Assembly: GCA_003599755.1 (NCBI GenBank)
Contig: QZJO01000009.1
Span: 86,140 to 150,139, forward strand
Length of the DNA: 64,000 nt
DNA from: Candidatus Parcubacteria bacterium
GTDB lineage: Bacteria > Patescibacteriota > Minisyncoccia > Sungbacterales > SURF-37
Reading direction: 5' to 3'
The notes under the pieces are model-generated. The model did no database searches and was not told the origin of the DNA. It saw nothing but the letters and a program-made list of their open reading frames with translations. The translations under genes were made by a program, and so were the position numbers. Shown one piece after another: positions 5,020 to 17,430 of the stretch (position 1 is its first letter; every line of letters starts with the position of its first letter).

Positions 5020-6144
5020 CTATCCTCCGATTTCATTATACGATACCGCGGCGCGCGAATTCATGCGGATGCTTTGCAAAATGCCCACGCCGGCCAGAAT
5101 CGTGACCAAGCTCGATCCGCCATAGGAAATGAACGGCAAGACGATCCCGGTGACCGGCAGCATGCCGAGGTTGATCGCCAGATGCACGAGCGTCTCGGCG
5201 AACAAGAACGATCCGAATCCAAGCACGAACAAGCGCGCGAAATTATCCTCGGCCTCCCGGCCGATGCGCACGAGACGCCAGAAAAACAGGCCGAAGAGGC
5301 CAAGCAGCAAGAGCGCGCCGATAAACCCCGTTTCCTCGGCGAACGCCGCGAAAATAAAATCGGTCTCGGCCTCGGGCAAAAAATTCAGATGCGACTGGGT
5401 TCCGTATCCGATCCCCTTGCCCATAAGCTCGCCCGAGCCGGCCGCGATCATGGCCTGGATCGTATTGTAGCCCGCGCCTTGGGGATCGACCCAAGGATCT
5501 AAAAAGGAAGTCACGCGAAGCTTCTGATACGGCTCCATGAACCAAAACCATGCCAAGAGCGCAACTACGATGCCGGTCGCGCCAAACAGGAGGACATGCT
5601 TCAACTGGATTCCGGAAAACGCGATGACCGCAAACCATACCGCCAACAATATCAGTGCCGAGCCCATGTCCGGCTGCAGGAGTACGAGCACGACTGCCGC
5701 GCCCACGTAGATGCCCGAGACGATCAGATGCCGCATCTGCCCGATCTCGATATGCCGCCGCGAAAAATATTTTGCGAGTAGGAGCACGATCACGAGCTTC
5801 GCAAGCTCGACCGGCTGAATGGAGGCGCCGCCGAACTGAAACCAGCCCCGAACCCCGCGGGTCTCGGGCGCGAACAAGAGCAGCCCGACGAGCAGTACCA
5901 GCGTTCCTAAATACAATACGGCTAAGAAGCCCCCGTGATTCCGGAATATGCGGTAGTCGAGCGACGCGCATACGGCAAACGCGGCAACGCCAACAAGTGC
6001 CCAGATGAGCTGGCGCCAAAACAAATTCGAGCCGGCCGGCGAATAGCTCCAGACCGCAAGCAGGCCTACGGCGACCAAGAGGCCGGTAATGCCAACCAGC
6101 GGCCAGTCGGCATAGCGGATCAACCGTTGCATTGCATGCGTCAT
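5020..6144 (-). CDS. SEDS-family peptidoglycan glycosyltransferase (FtsW/RodA/SpoVE).
   Basis: 374 aa, ~10 TM segments. Conserved C-terminal LPVTGIVLPFISYGGSSL motif of the FtsW/RodA family. Confidence 0.9.
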   Translation of the reverse strand: MTHAMQRLIRYADWPLVGITGLLVAVGLLAVWSYSPAGSNLFWRQLIWALVGVAAFAVCASLDYRIFRNHGGFLAVLYLGTLVLLVGLLLFAPETRGVRGWFQFGGASIQPVELAKLVIVLLLAKYFSRRHIEIGQMRHLIVSGIYVGAAVVLVLLQPDMGSALILLAVWFAVIAFSGIQLKHVLLFGATGIVVALLAWFWFMEPYQKLRVTSFLDPWVDPQGAGYNTIQAMIAAGSGELMGKGIGYGTQSHLNFLPEAETDFIFAAFAEETGFIGALLLLGLFGLFFWRLVRIGREAEDNFARLFVLGFGSFLFAETLVHLAINLGMLPVTGIVLPFISYGGSSLVTILAGVGILQSIRMNSRAAVSYNEIGG

Positions 6145-7060: not shown

Positions 7061-7178
7061 ATGCTGGCCTACTCTACTTTCCCAGGGACGCAAGGTCCCA
7101 AGTATCATCGAGCCCCTGCGCTTTCACGGCTCTGTTCGGAATGGGAAGAGGTGGGACACGCAGGGATAAAAGACCAGC
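7061..7178 (-). rRNA. rrf: 5S ribosomal RNA.
   Basis: Reverse complement aligns to the bacterial 5S consensus (CCGAACAGAGCCGUGAAAGCGC...GGGAAAGUAGAGUAGGCCAGCAU) with terminal helix GCUGGUC/GGCCAGC. Confidence 0.85.
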
Positions 7179-7537
7179 AAACAAAATTTCCGGTGTTGGG
7201 GTTCGGAACCTACCCGCCTGTATTTTGCAAAGCAAAATTCTGGCGGGATCTGACAACATGCGCGGGCAAAACCAATTCGTGTCCCGCTTCGCGAGCCACC
7301 GCGGATGGTCGCGGATGAAACGCTGATCAGCGCAGATACGAGACCGTATCCGCGAAATCCGCGTAGGAATCCGCGTTAATCTGCGGCGTCTCACTATGTG
7401 AGACGCGTCGCCCCTTCGGGCGGGAGTACATCGGCCGATTAGTACCGCTCGGCTCAAGCGCTCACGCGCCATACACCTGCGGCCTATCAACGTGATCATC
7501 TCTCACGGGCCTGATAACGATACCTAATCTTGGGGTG

Positions 7538-7570
<33 letters not shown>

Positions 7571-7689
7571 CGTCCGAACATAGCTACCCAGCGATGCTCC
7601 TGGCGGAACAGCTGGTACACCAGAGGTTCGTTCATCCTGATCCTCTCGTACAAAGGACGACGCCCCGCAAGTATCAACGCCTGCAGTAG

Positions 7690-7983
7690 ATAGGAGACCA
7701 ACCTGTCTCACGCATCTACACGCGTATTCCTACGCGGATTGGACTATATCTTCATCCTTCCGCTCGCGCGGGATGGGATGGCTGACGTGTAGTCTCTACG
7801 GGCTCCGCAACAGTAAGCGGATTCCCTCGGTATTGTCCGGTCTGGATTCTACCGAAATCAGTCAGCTGGCCTCGCGATATTCCTACCGCGAGCCGCCGTG
7901 AATAATGTCTTAACCTCGGGCTCAAACCGTTCATGCGCCAATCATCCGTTTGATTGACATCGCGATGCGCGATTAGCGCATCA
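7690..7983 (-). mobile_element. ORF-less group I-type intron in 23S rRNA at the position equivalent to E. coli U2593 (peptidyl-transferase region).
   Basis: The conserved run GGGUU(U/C)A(G/A)A(A/C)CGU | CGUGAGACAG is interrupted by 294 nt. Exon 1 ends in U and the insert ends in G, as expected for group I splicing. Contains a hairpin CAAACCGTT...AACGGTTTG. Track ORFs inside it (e.g. 7752..7934) are non-coding. Confidence 0.6.
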
Positions 7984-8116
7984 ACGGTTTGAACCCAGCT
8001 CGCGTACCTTTTTAATGGGCGAACAGCCCAACGCTTGGGAGCTTCTCCACCCCCGCGCTAAGGTGAGCCGACATCGAGGTGCCGAACTGCGCCGTCGCTA
8101 TGGACGCTCGGGCGCA

Positions 8117-8156
<40 letters not shown>

Positions 8157-9551
8157 TTTGGCCTTGTTCTAGTAAGTAGCACATACCCACATCTCGACCC
8201 CGAAGGGTCGAAAAGTGAATACACACCATAGCCATCGGATCACTACGTTCTGCTTTCGCACCTGCTCGGAATGTCCTCCTCGCAGTCAAGCCGGCTTTTC
8301 CCGTTACAGGTCCAGCGCGATTTCCATCCGCGCTAAGCCGACCTTTAAACCCCTCCATTACGCTTTAGGAGGGTTCTGCCCCAGACAAACTGCCTGCCAA
8401 GCACTGTCTCGCCGGAGTTTTTTCTCCGACGGTTAGGACCTAAAGGTTTCCAGAGTGGTATTTCACTGACGGCTCCATCCCGGCCGAAACCGAAACTTCA
8501 ACGCCTCCCACCTATGCTACGCAAGAAACTTCTAGACCCAATACCAAGCTGCAGTAAAGCTCCCGGGGTCTTTTCGTCTAACTGCAGGTAACCGGCATCT
8601 TCACCGGTACTGTATTTTCACCGAGCTCCACGTGGAGACAGTCCTCCGATCGTTACGCCTTTCATGCGCTTCGGAACTTACCCGAAAAGGAATTGCGCTA
8701 CTTTAACACGGTTATAGTTACCGCGGACATTGACGAGGGCTTGGCACCTCATGCCGAACAACGTTGATATAATCTCGATCACTCGACAGAAATGATTAAC
8801 CTTCTCGCATTGGTCAGGCGTCACCCCCTATACATCCTCTTACGAGTTCGCAGGGAGCTGTGTTTTTGGTAAACAGTCGCCAGAGGTACTTTCGCTGCGG
8901 CCTCGATTCATCACCGAGGCAGGCCTTATCGCGAACTTACGGCCGCTTGTTTGCCTAGTTCCTTCACGTGGACTCACTCGTTCGCCTTGGTGCATTCACA
9001 CCAACCCACCAGTGTCGGTTTCCGGTACGGTTTCTTATTGGTTAACCCTAGAGGGTTTTCTGGGAAGCGTGCTCAGCGAGCTTATCCGAGAGTCGCCCCT
9101 CGGCGTTGCCCCGGCACTCGGGACCGAGCATTACCTCTGCCGGCGGATTTGCCTACCGGCGTCCCCTATGCCGCGGACGGAAATCCCTAATCCGCCTCGC
9201 GTACTACGCTCCGTCACCCCATCAGAACCAATCAGAAGTCACGGAATATTAACCGTGTGTCCATCGGCTGCGGCTTTCGCCATTGCCTTAGGCCCGACTA
9301 ACCCTTGGATGATTGCCATTGCCAAGGAAACCTTGGGTTTGCGGCGATTCCGACTTTCACGGAATTTGCGGTTACTTGTGCCAACATTCTCTCTTCCGTA
9401 CGCTCCAGAGCTCCTCACGGATGCTCCTTCATCGCAGAACGAAATGCTCCCCTACCACGCGCGTTCGACGAATCGAACGCGCATCCGTAGCTTCGGTACT
9501 ATGCTTAGCCCCGTTGAATCTTTGGCGCCGGATCTCTTGACGAGTGAGCTG

Positions 9552-9594
<43 letters not shown>

Positions 9595-10167
9595 CGCTGT
9601 CTCTGAAATCCGACCACCTTAACCACTGAGCATAGATTTAGGGACCTTAGCTGACGATCAACGGCTGTTTCCGTTGCGCACGACGGAGCTTAGCCCCCGC
9701 CTGCTGACTCCCGGAATAACGCCCCGCGCATTCGGAGTTTGATTGGTCGCCGCGGGTTTCCCCGCTAGCGACCATCCAGTAGCTCTACCTCGCGTGACGC
9801 GTGATCCGAGGCTAGTCCAAAAACTATTTCGGGGAGAACCAGCTATTTCCAGGTTCGATTAGCTTTTCACTCCGTACCACAGCTCATCCGAGAATTTTGC
9901 ACCATTCACCGGTTCGGACCTCCCCCCGATTTTCATCGGGGCTCATCCTGGCCATGGTAAGCTCACCTGGTTTCGGGTCTCATGAGTACTACTTATTGGA
10001 ATGTAGATTGTGGAGTGTCGTTTGTGGTTTCCCACATTCTATGTTCCACATTCTACAGTCCAATGACGCGCTATTCGCACTCGGTTTCCCTGTGACTCGG
10101 TGCCGTACGGCACTTAATCAGCAGTACTCAAGAACTCGTTGGCTCATTCTTCAATAGGCACGCCGTG

Positions 10168-10468
10168 GTCCGGCACCTTCTTAAGCATTATCGAGGTCAA
10201 TTCGCTTTTTTAGTTCAGCCCAACGTTTGCCGAACTGTTTCAGTTTCTGTTCTCTTCGTCTTGCAGCTCGTTCATCCCGGAAAGCCTCATAATATATAAG
10301 CTCCCAAGGAACGCCGGCTTTCGTAGCTCGGTTCAAACCTTCATTATGACCGGCTACGCGTTTTCGAAGATCAGCTGAAAATCCAATATAGTATCGCGAA
10401 TTGACAACACTTCTGAGAACGTACACGTAGTACATTTTCTCAATATAACGCACAAGAAGGTGCCGGAC
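10168..10468 (-). other. 23S rRNA intervening sequence (IVS) in the helix-25 region (E. coli ~545). A 15-bp perfect stem (GTCCGGCACCTTCTT / AAGAAGGTGCCGGAC) encloses a 270-nt low-GC loop carrying an ORF.
   Basis: 23S sequence is continuous outside the two arms (...GGAGUCGGAGUC | stem ... stem | CACGGCGUGCCUAUUGAAGAAUGAGCC...). Arms are 10168..10182 and 10454..10468. Loop GC ~45% versus rRNA ~55%. Confidence 0.65.
10181..10453 (-). CDS. GIY-YIG nuclease-family protein (YhbQ/UPF0213-like, 90 aa) encoded inside the 23S helix-25 IVS.
   Basis: YYVYVLRS...RYYIGFSADLRKRVAGHNEG...PWELIYYEAFRDERAARRREQKLK is the canonical GIY-YIG domain (GIY..YIG..R..H/E..N). GTG start at 10453 or ATG at 10435. Stop overlaps the stem arm. 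Confidence 0.7.
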   Translation of the reverse strand: MRYIEKMYYVYVLRSVVNSRYYIGFSADLRKRVAGHNEGLNRATKAGVPWELIYYEAFRDERAARRREQKLKQFGKRWAELKKRIDLDNA

Positions 10469-11646
10469 TCCGACTCCTTGTAGACATATGGTTTCAGGTA
10501 CTATTTCATCGCCCTCACCGGGCTGCTTTTCACCGTTCCCTCACGGTACTGGTTCACTATCGGTGACGAAGAGTATTTAGCGTTGGGTCTCTAGTCGACC
10601 CGGCTTCACGCGCAGTCGCCGAACGGCGCGTTACTCAAGAATAGATTCAGAAGGCATACGACCATTTTCGAATACGGGGCTATTACCGTCTTTGGCCCGC
10701 CGTTCCAGGCGAGTTCTTCTAATAGCCGCATGTACCTTCTCGGACCGAAGTCCGACGAATCCATCTTACAACCCCCAGCAATCCGGCTTGCGCCGAATCG
10801 ATAGGTTTGCGCTGCTCCCGTTTCGCTCGCCGCTACTCAGGGAATGGGAGTCACACAAATTGGTGAACTCATGTATGCCCACCAATTTGGGTAACTCTTT
10901 GTTTTCTCTTCCTCCGCTTACTGAGATGTTTCACTTCAGCGGGTTCGCTCTCACACGGTTTTACCCGTGGAGTCTCCGACTATTAAGTCAGAGGGGTTAC
11001 CCCATTCGGAAATCCCCGGATCAAAGGTTGCTCACCACCTCCCCGAGGCTTATCGCAGGCACGCCGCGTCCTTCATCGCCTCTTCATCCCGAGGCATCCA
11101 CCATACGCCCTTGTTTGCACTCCCACCCGATTGGGTGAAAGGTTCTGCCCGCACATGTTGTCAGATATTACTTCGTATTTTGTTTTCAACGTTCGGTCAG
11201 TCCGCGTTGCCACCGTACCGGATGTCCGTATCGAACCGCGGTTCGGTCCGGGCATCTGCCACGATCGCACGAAAAAAGGCCGCTCGAGCGGCCCCAGGGG
11301 TCGACGCACGCTGGAAAGCAGCCGCCTATTCCCGAAGGGCCATTGAAATGCCGTATGTGAGAGCTTCACGCATGTTGTTCCTATTATAGGGATATCGCCG
11401 CACGCGTCAAGAGGCCGAAAAGTGGGCTTCATCCACTGTTCACCCCCACACTCATTACGGCAACATTTCCATCCCTATGTATGAAGGCGGGGGGGGTGCG
11501 TCCGCGTTGATTCTGCCCTGCAGTCATGCGCGATGCAGCGCTTCGCGTTCTTGCGCAATGAGGGCGAGGGTTAATTCGACTTCCTCCCAAATACAAACTC
11601 CCTCGGCATTGCCGGGGGAGTTTGTTCTCTGGTTCGCAAGCGGATC

Positions 11647-15466: not shown

Positions 15467-15476
15467 CGCGTTTTTT
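15449..15476 (+). terminator. Rho-independent terminator of efp.
   Basis: CGCGTCAGC-AAGG-GCTGACGCG followed by TTTTTT. The stem overlaps the efp stop codon. Also lies at the 3' end of the convergent ATPase gene. Confidence 0.8.
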
Positions 15477-17430
15477 AATCCAATCGGATTACCTCGCCCG
15501 GCGCCATCGCACTTCCACGCGGTGCGGCCGGTTCTTTTTTTCTCGGCCGCGATTCGATTGCGGGCGGCGGCGCAGCGATATCTTTCTCGTTCGATCGCGG
15601 CGGCATTTGCGCTGCCGGAACGCTCGCGGCGGCAGGGATTTTTTTCTCGCGCGGCTGATCGCCATTCATCGCCTCCGCAAGCGCCTTGCGCAGCTCCCCG
15701 AGATGATGCGCGGAGCGGCTTGCGTCGGCCTGCTTTGACTGATCGGAGCGCCGTTCGGACTCGCGCGCCGGCGCGGCCGGGCGAAGTTCTTTCAGCGACA
15801 ATGGTTTGGCGTCGCGCCGCGCGTTTCGATCGCGGCCGCCCTGCGGCCGCTCCCCTTGTTTTGCGGCAGAAGCGGACGCGGAAGATGTCGGAGCAGCACC
15901 GGTCGGCGCTGCCGCATCGGTTGGCGCGGTAGCGCCGTCGGCCATCTGGGAACGAAATTGGATCAAGTGCATATGTTCCTCGCAAAATACCGGCCGCTTG
16001 CCGTCGGGTTTGAACGGCACCAGGATCGACTTCTGGTCCACGGCGCATTTGGCCTCGTACATCGGCCGATCGGGTTTAGCCGCGGCAGCGCCGGCTGAGC
16101 GCAAGCCCGCGCCCGGAACCGCTTCAAAGCCGCCCAACGTGAATTCGCGAATCTTTTCCTCGACCTGGGCGCGCGGCGCGCTGTAGTGCTCCCGCGAGTA
16201 TTGAACAATCTCTTTGACGAAGGACTGCGCCGGCGTCGGCATCGGCGGCAGGGTCTCGGCCGAAAACGGCCGAGACGTCAGCCCGTCGATCATGAGTTTG
16301 AGATACACTTGCTTGAACCCGAGGTTAACGAGGTCCTGGACCATGAATTCGGGCATGAATTCTTTTTCCAAGAGTTCCGCATCTTCGGCGCCGATACGGA
16401 ACGTAATCATCGTACCGACGTTGCCGAAGATGGCATGCTGCACCTCCTCTTCCATTTGCGCAATGTATTGATGCGCAACGGTCAGGTTGAGACGGTACTT
16501 GCGCGCCTCGGACAAGATGTTTGCGAAGGACTCGGTGGCGAAGTTCTGGAACTCGTCGACGTAGAGGTAGAAATCTTTACGCTCGGGTTCGGGGATATCC
16601 ACGCGGCTCATGGCGGTAAGATACAATTTCGCCACCATCATGGCGCCCAAGAGCCGCGAATTCTCCTCGCCGATGTTCCCTTTCGAAAGATTTACGATGA
16701 AAATCTTCTGCTCATCCATGATGGCCCGCATATCCAGGGACGTCTCGACTTGGCCGATGACGTTGCGGATCAGCGGATTGCCGGAAAACTGGCCGATCTT
16801 GTTCTGAATCGCGGCCACGGCCTCGCGCATGTATTGCTCCGGATACTTGGCGAATTCGTTTTCCCAAAAACCCCGGATGACCGGATCGGTCAGCTGCGCC
16901 ACGATCTGGCGCCGGAATTCCTTTTCGCCGAACATGCGATTCACGGATAACAGCGTCGAGCCCTTTACTTGCAGCAGTGCGAGAATGGCATTGGCCAGAA
17001 GGTACTCCATGCGCGCGGACCAAACCTCCGGCCCGAAAATCTTTTTGAACACGCTCAAAAGGCCCGAGGTAATCAGATGTCGTTGGTCCTCGGCCACGGC
17101 TTCCATGACATTGAACGCCATCGGATATTCGATATCCACCGGATTGAAATACACAACGTCCTTGATGCGGTGCTCGGGCACAAATTGGAGCACCCGCTCG
17201 GCGTATTCGCCGTGCGGGTCCACGACCGCGACGCCATGACCGGCTTGGATATCCTGGATGGTCATGTTTTCCAGAAGCGTGGACTTGCCCATGCCGGTCT
17301 TTCCGATGATATAGACGTGCTTGCGTCGATCGCCGCGTTGGATGCCAAATCGCCGCCGCTGGCCGCGGAAGTTCGTCTCGCCAAAAAAGGTGATGTCTTT
17401 GTCGGATGCTCTGCCGTCCATGGATGGCAT
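15475..17430 (-). CDS. HerA/FtsK/VirD4-superfamily P-loop ATPase (DUF87/AAA_10 N-terminal domain plus TraG-D_C-like C-terminal module), with a low-complexity Ala/Pro/Arg-rich tail.
   Basis: Walker A YIIGKTGMGKSTLL; DUF87 hallmark VVDPHGEY; Walker B LYVDEFQNF; LTVAHQYIAQMEEEVQHAIFGNVGTMITFRIGAEDAELLEKEF resembles the TraD/TraG C-terminal motif. No TM segments. Confidence 0.7.
   Translation of the reverse strand: MPSMDGRASDKDITFFGETNFRGQRRRFGIQRGDRRKHVYIIGKTGMGKSTLLENMTIQDIQAGHGVAVVDPHGEYAERVLQFVPEHRIKDVVYFNPVDIEYPMAFNVMEAVAEDQRHLITSGLLSVFKKIFGPEVWSARMEYLLANAILALLQVKGSTLLSVNRMFGEKEFRRQIVAQLTDPVIRGFWENEFAKYPEQYMREAVAAIQNKIGQFSGNPLIRNVIGQVETSLDMRAIMDEQKIFIVNLSKGNIGEENSRLLGAMMVAKLYLTAMSRVDIPEPERKDFYLYVDEFQNFATESFANILSEARKYRLNLTVAHQYIAQMEEEVQHAIFGNVGTMITFRIGAEDAELLEKEFMPEFMVQDLVNLGFKQVYLKLMIDGLTSRPFSAETLPPMPTPAQSFVKEIVQYSREHYSAPRAQVEEKIREFTLGGFEAVPGAGLRSAGAAAAKPDRPMYEAKCAVDQKSILVPFKPDGKRPVFCEEHMHLIQFRSQMADGATAPTDAAAPTGAAPTSSASASAAKQGERPQGGRDRNARRDAKPLSLKELRPAAPARESERRSDQSKQADASRSAHHLGELRKALAEAMNGDQPREKKIPAAASVPAAQMPPRSNEKDIAAPPPAIESRPRKKEPAAPRGSAMAPGEVIRLD

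Follow-up and report, generated by a model that had tools for sequence, protein, structure and literature searches.

A group I intron of 271 nt interrupts the 23S rRNA gene in the analysed stretch of Parcubacteria DNA (64 kb in full, referred to as the window), directly after the residue equivalent to U2593 of Escherichia coli. The insert is identified as a group I intron by its site, a covarying secondary structure, the absence of an open reading frame (ORF) and homology with other introns at this position. The overall reading that we prefer, with a probability of approximately 0.88, is that of an intact, endonuclease-less, probably self-splicing and vertically inherited intron of the lineage that occupies the I-CreI site, located in a 23S rRNA gene of Parcubacteria. 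From the sequence we infer that this intron would be spliced, would no longer move by itself and may use an additional exon-binding helix. The window intron is a new sequence, real but ordinary, of a type that has been catalogued before.

Host gene and insertion site

The host 23S rRNA gene was 3709 nt long including the intron and other insertions, compared with 2925 positions of the model, and constituted, together with the 5S rRNA gene, the single rRNA unit of the window (Table 1); searches of the 64 kb for 16S rRNA and tRNA found none. The identity of the 23S exons was 67% to E. coli and 72-79% to loci of the Candidate Phyla Radiation (CPR). A MAFFT alignment with E. coli rrlH revealed eight insertions in the gene; several of the others had no intron signature, for example one of 278 nt near E. 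coli position 540.

The insertion of interest falls within helix 93, part of the peptidyl-transferase centre, exactly after the equivalent of U2593. Read as RNA, the 5' exon ends with GGGUUCAAACCGU and the insert starts with UGAUGCGC; the insert ends with GUAGAUG, and the 3' exon starts with CGUGAGACAG. The host site reads CAAACCGT before and CGTGAGACAGGTTGG after the insertion point, and its intron-less form is CAAACCGTCGTGAGACAGGTTGG. The last nucleotide of the 5' exon is U and that of the insert is G, and moving the boundaries never gives back the conserved exon sequence. In annotation, the 23S rRNA gene has to be split into two exons (11126..7984 and 7712..7418).

The preliminary description had placed an insert of approximately 294 nt at 7690-7983, without a strand, and had quoted the E. 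coli sequence as the interrupted exon run. Its upper end (7983) is retained, while the lower end is corrected to 7713 and the length to 271 nt because positions 7690-7712 are 3' exon (CGUGAGACAGGUUGGUCUCCUAU); the intron is on the minus strand, and the actual 5' exon is GGGUUCAAACCGU. On the other hand, three of its statements agreed with our data: the interruption after U at L2593 (alignment to rrlH), the terminal G (junction read directly, with G7713 before CGUGAG) and the lack of an ORF (none of more than 60 amino acids inside the insert, the longest being 60 amino acids).

Group I identity and secondary structure

The Rfam group I model (RF00028) matched the insert over its whole length (model positions 1-253; window 7914..7720) with a score of 48.5 bits and E values of 2e-10 in a 4.4-kb search and 1.4e-11 in a search of 321 nt, the first 69-83 nt of the intron being outside the alignment. 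Since this score falls short of the gathering score of 50 by 1.5 bits, only the 23S and 5S rRNAs are listed in the window at Rfam gathering thresholds, and standard pipelines will leave the intron unlabelled. An intron from Candidatus Wildermuthbacteria (L097), the only homologue scored against RF00028, reached 63.5 bits, over the gathering score.

A complete set of helices from P1 to P10 could be drawn (Table 1), and all 83 proposed pairs were standard in the window copy, with no mismatch. In a MAFFT alignment of 27 ORF-less homologues (group B; see below), 91.9% of the cells were paired, compared with 32-41% when the partners were slid by 1-3 columns, and double-sided (compensatory) changes were found in 52 of the 83 pairs; none of 500 shuffles reached the observed values. 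Covariation was found in P2, P3, P5 (3/3 pairs), P6, P8 and P9, while P4 was mostly invariant and P7 fully invariant: G-(bulged A)-GACUA and UAGUCC in 27/27, in agreement with the Rfam consensus. The G-C pair of P7 beside the bulge is the expected guanosine-binding site, in line with established group I structures. The group I intron suspected in the preliminary description, which had called for a search for P1-P10 and the G-binding site, is supported: the P3-P7-P8 core was found by both Rfam and covariation, compensatory changes extended from P2 to P9, and the intron has the U.G wobble at the splice site, P10, a guanosine site in P7 and omega-G.

Table 1. Coordinates in the window of the rRNA genes, the intron and its structural elements (intron position = 7984 minus window coordinate).
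Feature	Window coordinates	Strand	Intron positions	Remarks
23S rRNA gene	7418..11126	-		RF02541 match, 2296 bits, model positions 1-2925
5S rRNA gene	7178..7062			Rfam
Intron	7713..7983	-		271 nt; 5' end U7983, 3' end G7713 (omega-G); from MAFFT alignment with rrlH and reading of junctions
5' exon -13..-5	7988..7996	-		GGGUUCAAA; target of the extra exon-binding segment
P1, 5' strand (exon -4..-1)	7984..7987	-		CCGU; pairs with GCGG (7896..7893, intron 88-91); U7984 is the splice-site U
P1a hairpin in enlarged P1 loop	7933..7981	-	3-51	AUGCGCUAAUC / GAUUGGCGCAU and variable tip; in minimum free energy fold
Extra exon-binding segment	7918..7926	-	58-66	UUUGAGCCC; complementary to 5' exon -13..-5
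Internal guide sequence	7893..7902	-	82-87 (P10 strand)	UUCACG (7902..7897, P10 strand), then GCGG (7896..7893, P1 3' strand)
P2 hairpin	7871..7892	-	92-113	GGAA (GNRA) loop; 7/7 inner pairs compensatory, 95% paired
P3, 5' strand	7861..7866	-	118-123	GCUGAC; pairs with 7786..7781; 6/6 pairs compensatory, 92% paired
P4 and P5	7827..7855	-	P4, 129-134 / 152-157; P5, 138-140 / 146-148	P4 UCGGUA/UACCGA around short P5 UCC/GGA; 99% and 96% paired
P6/P6a	7800..7826	-	158-184	minimal hairpin, 8-nt loop; place of the endonuclease gene in relatives
P7, 5' strand	7790..7796	-	188, 190-194	GAGACUA, A189 bulged; pairs with 7746..7741 (238-243)
P3, 3' strand	7781..7786	-	198-203	GUCAGC; partner of GCUGAC
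P8 hairpin	7753..7780	-	204-231	GCGA loop
J8/7 and P7, 3' strand	7741..7752	-		AAGAUA and UAGUCC; AAGAUAUAGUCC invariant, partly by construction (part of the search pattern)
P9 hairpin	7721..7736	-	248-263	GGAA loop; 5/6 pairs compensatory, 94% paired
Omega-G	7713	-	271	precedes CGUGAG
P10 partner (3' exon)	7707..7712	-		CGUGAG; pairs with UUCACG, 6 pairs; in minimum free energy fold

The four pairs of P1 (C-G, C-G, G-C and U.G) were present in 26-27 of the 27 homologues, and the U.G wobble, formed between G7896 and U7984 in the window copy, in all 27. The guide sequence is located directly 5' of P2, as is the GCGUUC guide of L2593 introns outside CPR, and its ACGGCG run was invariant in 27/27. 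The cells of P10 were paired in 84%, and the P1a hairpin showed compensatory changes in 11/11 pairs (85% of cells paired). P8 is the sole hairpin between P3' and J8/7, and P7.1/P7.2 are absent from the interval between P3' and P8. For two conserved motifs of the P1 loop, GAGG and GACAUCA, a search by eye found no pairing partner.

The minimum free energy fold gave a z value of -7.3 against dinucleotide shuffles and contained P2-P6, P8-P10 and the 5' hairpin, without P1 and P7. In this fold the 5' splice site was locked in a long hairpin, in which U-1 is opposite A and not in P1; this was caused by an exon complementarity of the window copy that runs on to the splice site, as described below. 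With a P1 of 4 bp and a P5 of just 3 bp, efficient splicing may need the extra helix described below or help from protein.

The proposed steps follow the standard group I splicing pathway. The GCGG guide would pair with exon CCGU to give P1 with the U.G wobble at the splice site, and an external guanosine docked on the P7 G-C pair would attack after U7984. Pairing of UUCACG with CGUGAG of the 3' exon would then give P10, the terminal G7713 would replace the external guanosine, and exon ligation would restore helix 93.

Relatives at L2593 and probable loss of the endonuclease gene

One genome per species was scanned for the pattern AGATATAGTC-N(15-45)-CGTGAGACAG, and at least 119 loci were obtained; the sample is biased in that the pattern requires AGATATAGTC and CGTGAGACAG, both being invariant by construction. 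Both exon junctions could be located in 105 loci among the matches listed, and all 105 were inserted at the same site. The lengths were bimodal with a few intermediates: at least about 65 introns of 233-470 nt were ORF-less, and at least 34 introns of 640-830 nt carried an ORF of 120 amino acids or more. Among the closest relatives in the matches listed were L097 (73% identity over the full length) and a metagenome intron (L124; 75% identity).

To judge from motif spacing, the extra 450-530 nt of the longer introns among the matches listed were always accommodated by the P6 loop (the interval from P4' to P7). All three intact ORFs of relatives that were tested matched LAGLIDADG_1 (Pfam), and one ORF-carrying CPR copy matched the solved structures of I-CreI and I-MsoI, with E values of 6e-17 and 2e-24, respectively. 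The ribozyme core of the window intron could be aligned with ORF-carrying CPR copies at L2593, with motif spacing common to both, while the single-motif LAGLIDADG gene present in P6 of these relatives is lacking in the window copy: 32 nt separate P4' from P7, including a loop of 8 nt, and no trace of a gene is left. Since the longer relatives hold an I-CreI/I-MsoI-type gene in P6, the window copy probably lost its endonuclease. About eleven introns among the matches listed had P6 intervals of 118-303 nt, which look like decaying genes; one ORF remnant from an intron with such an intermediate P6 gave no Pfam match. The window intron agrees with the usual course, from invasion through decay of the endonuclease to loss. 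The gene would have been wholly lost from P6, inheritance would now most likely be vertical, and movement would be possible only with a related endonuclease supplied in trans. A statement of the preliminary description, that the ORF-less element could not home independently, is reasonable in light of the missing ORF here and the I-CreI-family gene in P6 of the relatives.

The L2593 introns fell into two groups. In group A, the 5' exon ends with GAACGU and the 3' exon starts with CGUGAGACAGUUCGG, P1 is 6 bp (GAACGU/GCGUUC) with a loop of 7-9 nt, and approximately 100 nt separate the two strands of P7; the hosts were cyanobacteria, Omnitrophota, Eremiobacterota, Planctomycetia, proteobacteria and some CPR groups. 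In group B, to which the window intron belongs, the exons are ACCGU and CGUGAGACAGGUUGG, the guide sequence is preceded by 55-240 nt, and the strands of P7 are 35-50 nt apart without P7.1/P7.2; among the matches listed, the hosts were nearly all CPR/Parcubacteria-type genomes.

I-CreI (Chlamydomonas reinhardtii) and I-MsoI (Monomastix) are encoded at the equivalent position of the chloroplast 23S rRNA gene, and the endonucleases of the ORF-carrying relatives of the window intron are their sequence homologues. The introns of I-CreI and I-MsoI are organellar and demonstrably mobile, and encode an active endonuclease. In contrast, the window copy is bacterial and ORF-less, and the target in helix 93 is AACC...GGUU instead of GAAC...GUUC.

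Comparison with known introns

L2593 had been named a known group I site in the preliminary description, and this is confirmed by the literature: introns with LAGLIDADG genes are documented there in thermophilic cyanobacteria (PMC1995217), and CPR 23S rRNA genes often carry an intron at position 2593 according to Tsurumaki et al. (2024, J Bacteriol, PMC11270868). The same paper reports insertions in 82% of CPR 23S rRNA genes, 222 ORF-less group I introns in these genes, a concentration of LAGLIDADG_1 genes at positions including 2593, and the removal of the rRNA insertions from transcripts. The window intron resembles the CPR introns at 2593 in that paper in host group, site, group I assignment by Rfam and the link between this site and single-domain LAGLIDADG_1 endonucleases: its host belongs to CPR, it exceeds the 100 bp taken there as the lower limit for an insertion at 2593, and it is group I-like by Rfam. 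It thus adds one more endonuclease-less copy to a documented population of CPR rRNA introns; its exact sequence did not appear among the matches listed from the collections covered. The portion of the paper considered contains neither a secondary structure of the 2593 introns nor an extra exon-binding segment.

The cyanobacterial L2593 introns (Synechococcus C9, S. lividus C1 and Thermosynechococcus elongatus; Haugen et al. 2007, PMC1995217) and non-CPR introns of group A occupy the same site. They share with the window intron the order in which the guide, P2, P3-P9 and a short P5 are arranged, as well as P6 as the place for the I-CreI-type gene, and the core sequences of J8/7-P7 and P4/P6 are near-identical. 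On the other hand, these introns are 744-748 nt long with a full endonuclease gene, P7.1/P7.2 (approximately 65 nt), a 6-bp P1 and a P1 loop of 7-9 nt, whereas the window intron lacks both an ORF and P7.1/P7.2 and has a 4-bp P1, 83 nt before the UCACGGCGG guide block and an extra exon-binding segment. The interval between the strands of P7 was 48 nt in the window intron, from which the classical IA-type P7.1/P7.2 are absent, and approximately 100 nt in non-CPR L2593 introns; the latter corresponds to the P7.1/P7.2 extension of the cyanobacterial introns (PMC1995217).

Group I introns in the 23S rRNA of Thermotoga (L1931) and Coxiella (L1917 and L1951), for which self-splicing has been shown according to references in PMC11270868 and PMC11809585, are likewise bacterial and located in domains IV/V, but at other sites and in other lineages; those compared by Haugen et al. 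were IC1-like at L1917/L1931 (PMC1995217).

A candidate second exon-binding segment

Upstream of the guide sequence, the segment at 7926..7918 is complementary to exon positions -13..-5, and this helix was 100% paired in the 27 aligned sequences. Two of its pairs changed on both sides together with the exon: C-G was replaced by U-A in 6 sequences, and A-U by G-C in 12. Among 71 distinct introns of group B, 15 of them from metagenomes, the complement was 9/9 in 64 and 8/9 in 7, while approximately 5% of shuffles reached 9/9; in ORF-less group A introns, a 9/9 complement was found in 0 of 15. The segment follows four different exon haplotypes, and the G.U pairs that occur in the helix argue for pairing at the RNA level.

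Since the extra helix crosses P1 in linear order, it would either coexist with P1 (as a pseudoknot, at a junction with P2) or alternate with it, acting as a switch in folding. In the window copy, the complementarity runs on to the splice site, where U-1 is opposite A. The long 5' hairpin that results (exon -13..-1 with intron 54-66, continuing into 1-53) was considered as P1 and rejected: it would oppose A to the splice-site U, the base facing U-1 is not constant (A, C, U and G in 49, 12, 4 and 4, respectively, by hand tally of the 70 scorable among 71 introns), and exon positions -4..-1 are mostly unpaired in 14 introns. The invariant GCGG 5' of P2, on the other hand, gives the U.G pair in 27/27 and is the counterpart of the guide sequence outside CPR.

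As a working inference from these complementarities, the extra segment would keep the 5' exon close to P1, which is very short (4 bp). If functional, it would provide a natural example of a group I intron with extended 5'-exon recognition, and the segment could tether the 5' exon, stop misfolding of the peptidyl-transferase strand or guide reverse splicing. Within the small part of the literature covered, such a covarying second exon-binding segment may be undescribed; if shown to act in splicing, it would add to the knowledge of exon recognition by group I introns, and it is the sole part of this study that could have wider import. That the CPR-type L2593 introns represent a structurally distinct variant at the I-CreI site, having lost P7.1/P7.2, shortened P1 to 4 bp and gained a second exon-binding sequence, is a tentative idea with a modest chance of being correct.

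Alternative explanations

An RNase III-excised intervening sequence is a simple extended stem-loop at a helix tip, typically of helix 25 or 45, and has no ribozyme core. The present insert, in contrast, combines a location in helix 93 with a group I core, the detection of which by Rfam and covariation effectively refutes the view that it is such a sequence (or an expansion segment) removed without ligation, or an artefact of assembly. This view, which could appeal to the insertions without intron signature in the same gene, such as that of 278 nt near position 540, and to the intervening sequences known in CPR and other bacteria (PMC11270868), also has to account for the precise location of the insert at a classical homing site and for homologous introns at this site in more than 100 independent assemblies; we consider it hardly tenable. 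Retention of the intron in mature 23S rRNA, inactivity of the gene, or splicing with a protein cofactor only, is a more serious alternative in view of the very short P1 and P5 and of a predicted lowest-energy fold in which another hairpin masks the 5' splice site; there is also a precedent in the L1931 intron of Simkania 23S rRNA, reported to be unspliced (Everett 1999, cited among the references in PMC11270868). However, all helices are intact in the window copy and maintained by compensatory change across the family, and conservation or covariation is seen in each element that pairs with an exon (P1, P10 and the additional helix), which is sensible only when exon recognition is under selection. 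In addition, a retained stretch of 271 nt beside A2602 would lie within the peptidyl-transferase centre, and CPR genomes typically contain just one rRNA copy (PMC11270868). This alternative appears very improbable.

A spliced intron that is still mobile, either by an I-CreI-type endonuclease supplied from elsewhere (the same genome or co-resident CPR cells) or by reverse splicing into 23S rRNA, appears unlikely, albeit with several observations on its side. Copies with and without the endonuclease of one lineage coexist across CPR genomes, the extra segment tracks the exon haplotypes, and the long exon complementarity (4-bp P1 and 9-bp extra helix) would guide reverse splicing. Reverse splicing and trans-acting ("collaborative") homing have been discussed for bacterial group I introns, and endonuclease-gene loss from introns has been reviewed with them (PMC3984707). 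The exon covariation, however, is equally expected from long vertical co-evolution, and the identity of the nearest relatives found among the matches listed, only 73-75%, is unlike a recent spread. There was no I-CreI-like ORF within the 64-kb window: an HMM built from 34 intron-encoded endonucleases and run against its six-frame ORFs for a trans-acting enzyme gave a best E value of 5. Vertical inheritance of a splicing-competent, endonuclease-less intron remains the reading that we prefer.

Genomic context

The neighbouring genes were ordinary chromosomal ones, encoding FtsW/RodA, ribulose-phosphate 3-epimerase and SecA, and a type IV coupling-protein-like ORF was also found among them. SecA was 100% identical to an NCBI protein from a Candidatus Parcubacteria bacterium, on which the assignment of the host rests. 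The nearest other matches of SecA were from Sungbacteria, with an identity of about 60-73%.

Additional exon pairing and structural forms of L2593 introns

The enlarged P1 loop of the window intron contained a 9-nt segment complementary to positions -13 to -5 of the 5' exon. This pairing was complete (9/9) in 64 of the 71 distinct CPR-type L2593 introns among the matches listed, versus approximately 5% of shuffles, and the segment covaried with four exon haplotypes at loci L002-L135 (L2593 introns retrieved from other genomes and metagenomes). The non-CPR L2593 introns among the matches listed were without this exon-pairing segment. The helix formed by the segment and the exon crosses P1 and must therefore represent a pseudoknot or else a conformer alternative to it.

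Two structural forms of L2593 introns were found among the matches listed (loci L002-L120): one, distributed across many phyla, had a short P1 loop and approximately 100 nt separating the P7 strands (P7.1/P7.2), and the other, the CPR-type, had a long P1 loop and was missing P7.1/P7.2. At least about eleven of the L2593 introns among the matches listed had a P6 interval of 118-303 nt, and these look like decaying endonuclease genes. The score of the window intron against the Rfam group I intron model (RF00028) was 48.5 bits, and it is therefore missed by annotation at the gathering score of 50; the closest relative among the matches listed (L097, Candidatus Wildermuthbacteria; 5096-5276) scored 63.5 bits.

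In a gammaproteobacterial MAG (L021, 45-502), a second copy of the start of the 3' exon (CGTGAGACAGTA) preceded an L2593-type intron; a short duplication of the target or rearrangement of the intron could account for this. A bacterial-type L2593 intron carrying an I-CreI-like gene (L032, 132-865) was located on a contig of 4.7 kb that had been assigned to a Promethearchaeota (Asgard archaea) bin, probably by mis-binning.

Arrangement of the 23S rRNA gene

The 278-nt insertion in the 23S gene (see Table) gave no match in Rfam, and its predicted fold was a closed domain (z = -3.8). Most likely, this insertion represents an expansion segment or intervening sequence like those reported at known RNase III sites of CPR 23S genes. 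A stable CGACCCUUCGGGGUCG hairpin was found inside the 55-nt insertion. Three deletions of 9-19 nt each, relative to E. coli, ended at approximately E. coli positions 139, 1727, and 2809.

Table. Features of the 23S rRNA gene, its intron, and two ORFs (window positions).
Feature	Position	Strand	Remark
9-nt intron segment	7918-7926	-	P1 loop
Paired 5' exon	7988-7996	-	-13 to -5
RF00028 match	7720-7914		window intron
55-nt insertion	8171-8225	-	relative to E. coli
70-nt insertion	9996-10065	-	relative to E. coli
278-nt insertion	10189-10466	-	around E. coli position 540, in the region of helix 25
60-nt insertion	10746-10805	-	relative to E. coli
48-nt insertion	10852-10899	-	relative to E. coli
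184-aa ORF	9012-9566	+	antisense inside 23S gene
651-aa ORF	15475-17430	-	4 kb upstream of 23S gene

The 23S-5S pair was isolated, with no other rRNA genes alongside, and neither a 16S rRNA gene nor tRNA genes were found in the whole 64-kb window (1-64000); the rRNA genes are therefore unlinked, or the 16S gene is more than 50 kb distant. The antisense 184-aa ORF is almost certainly spurious. The 651-aa ORF contained type IV secretion coupling-protein (TrwB/TraG-like), HerA-like ATPase, and zinc finger domains.
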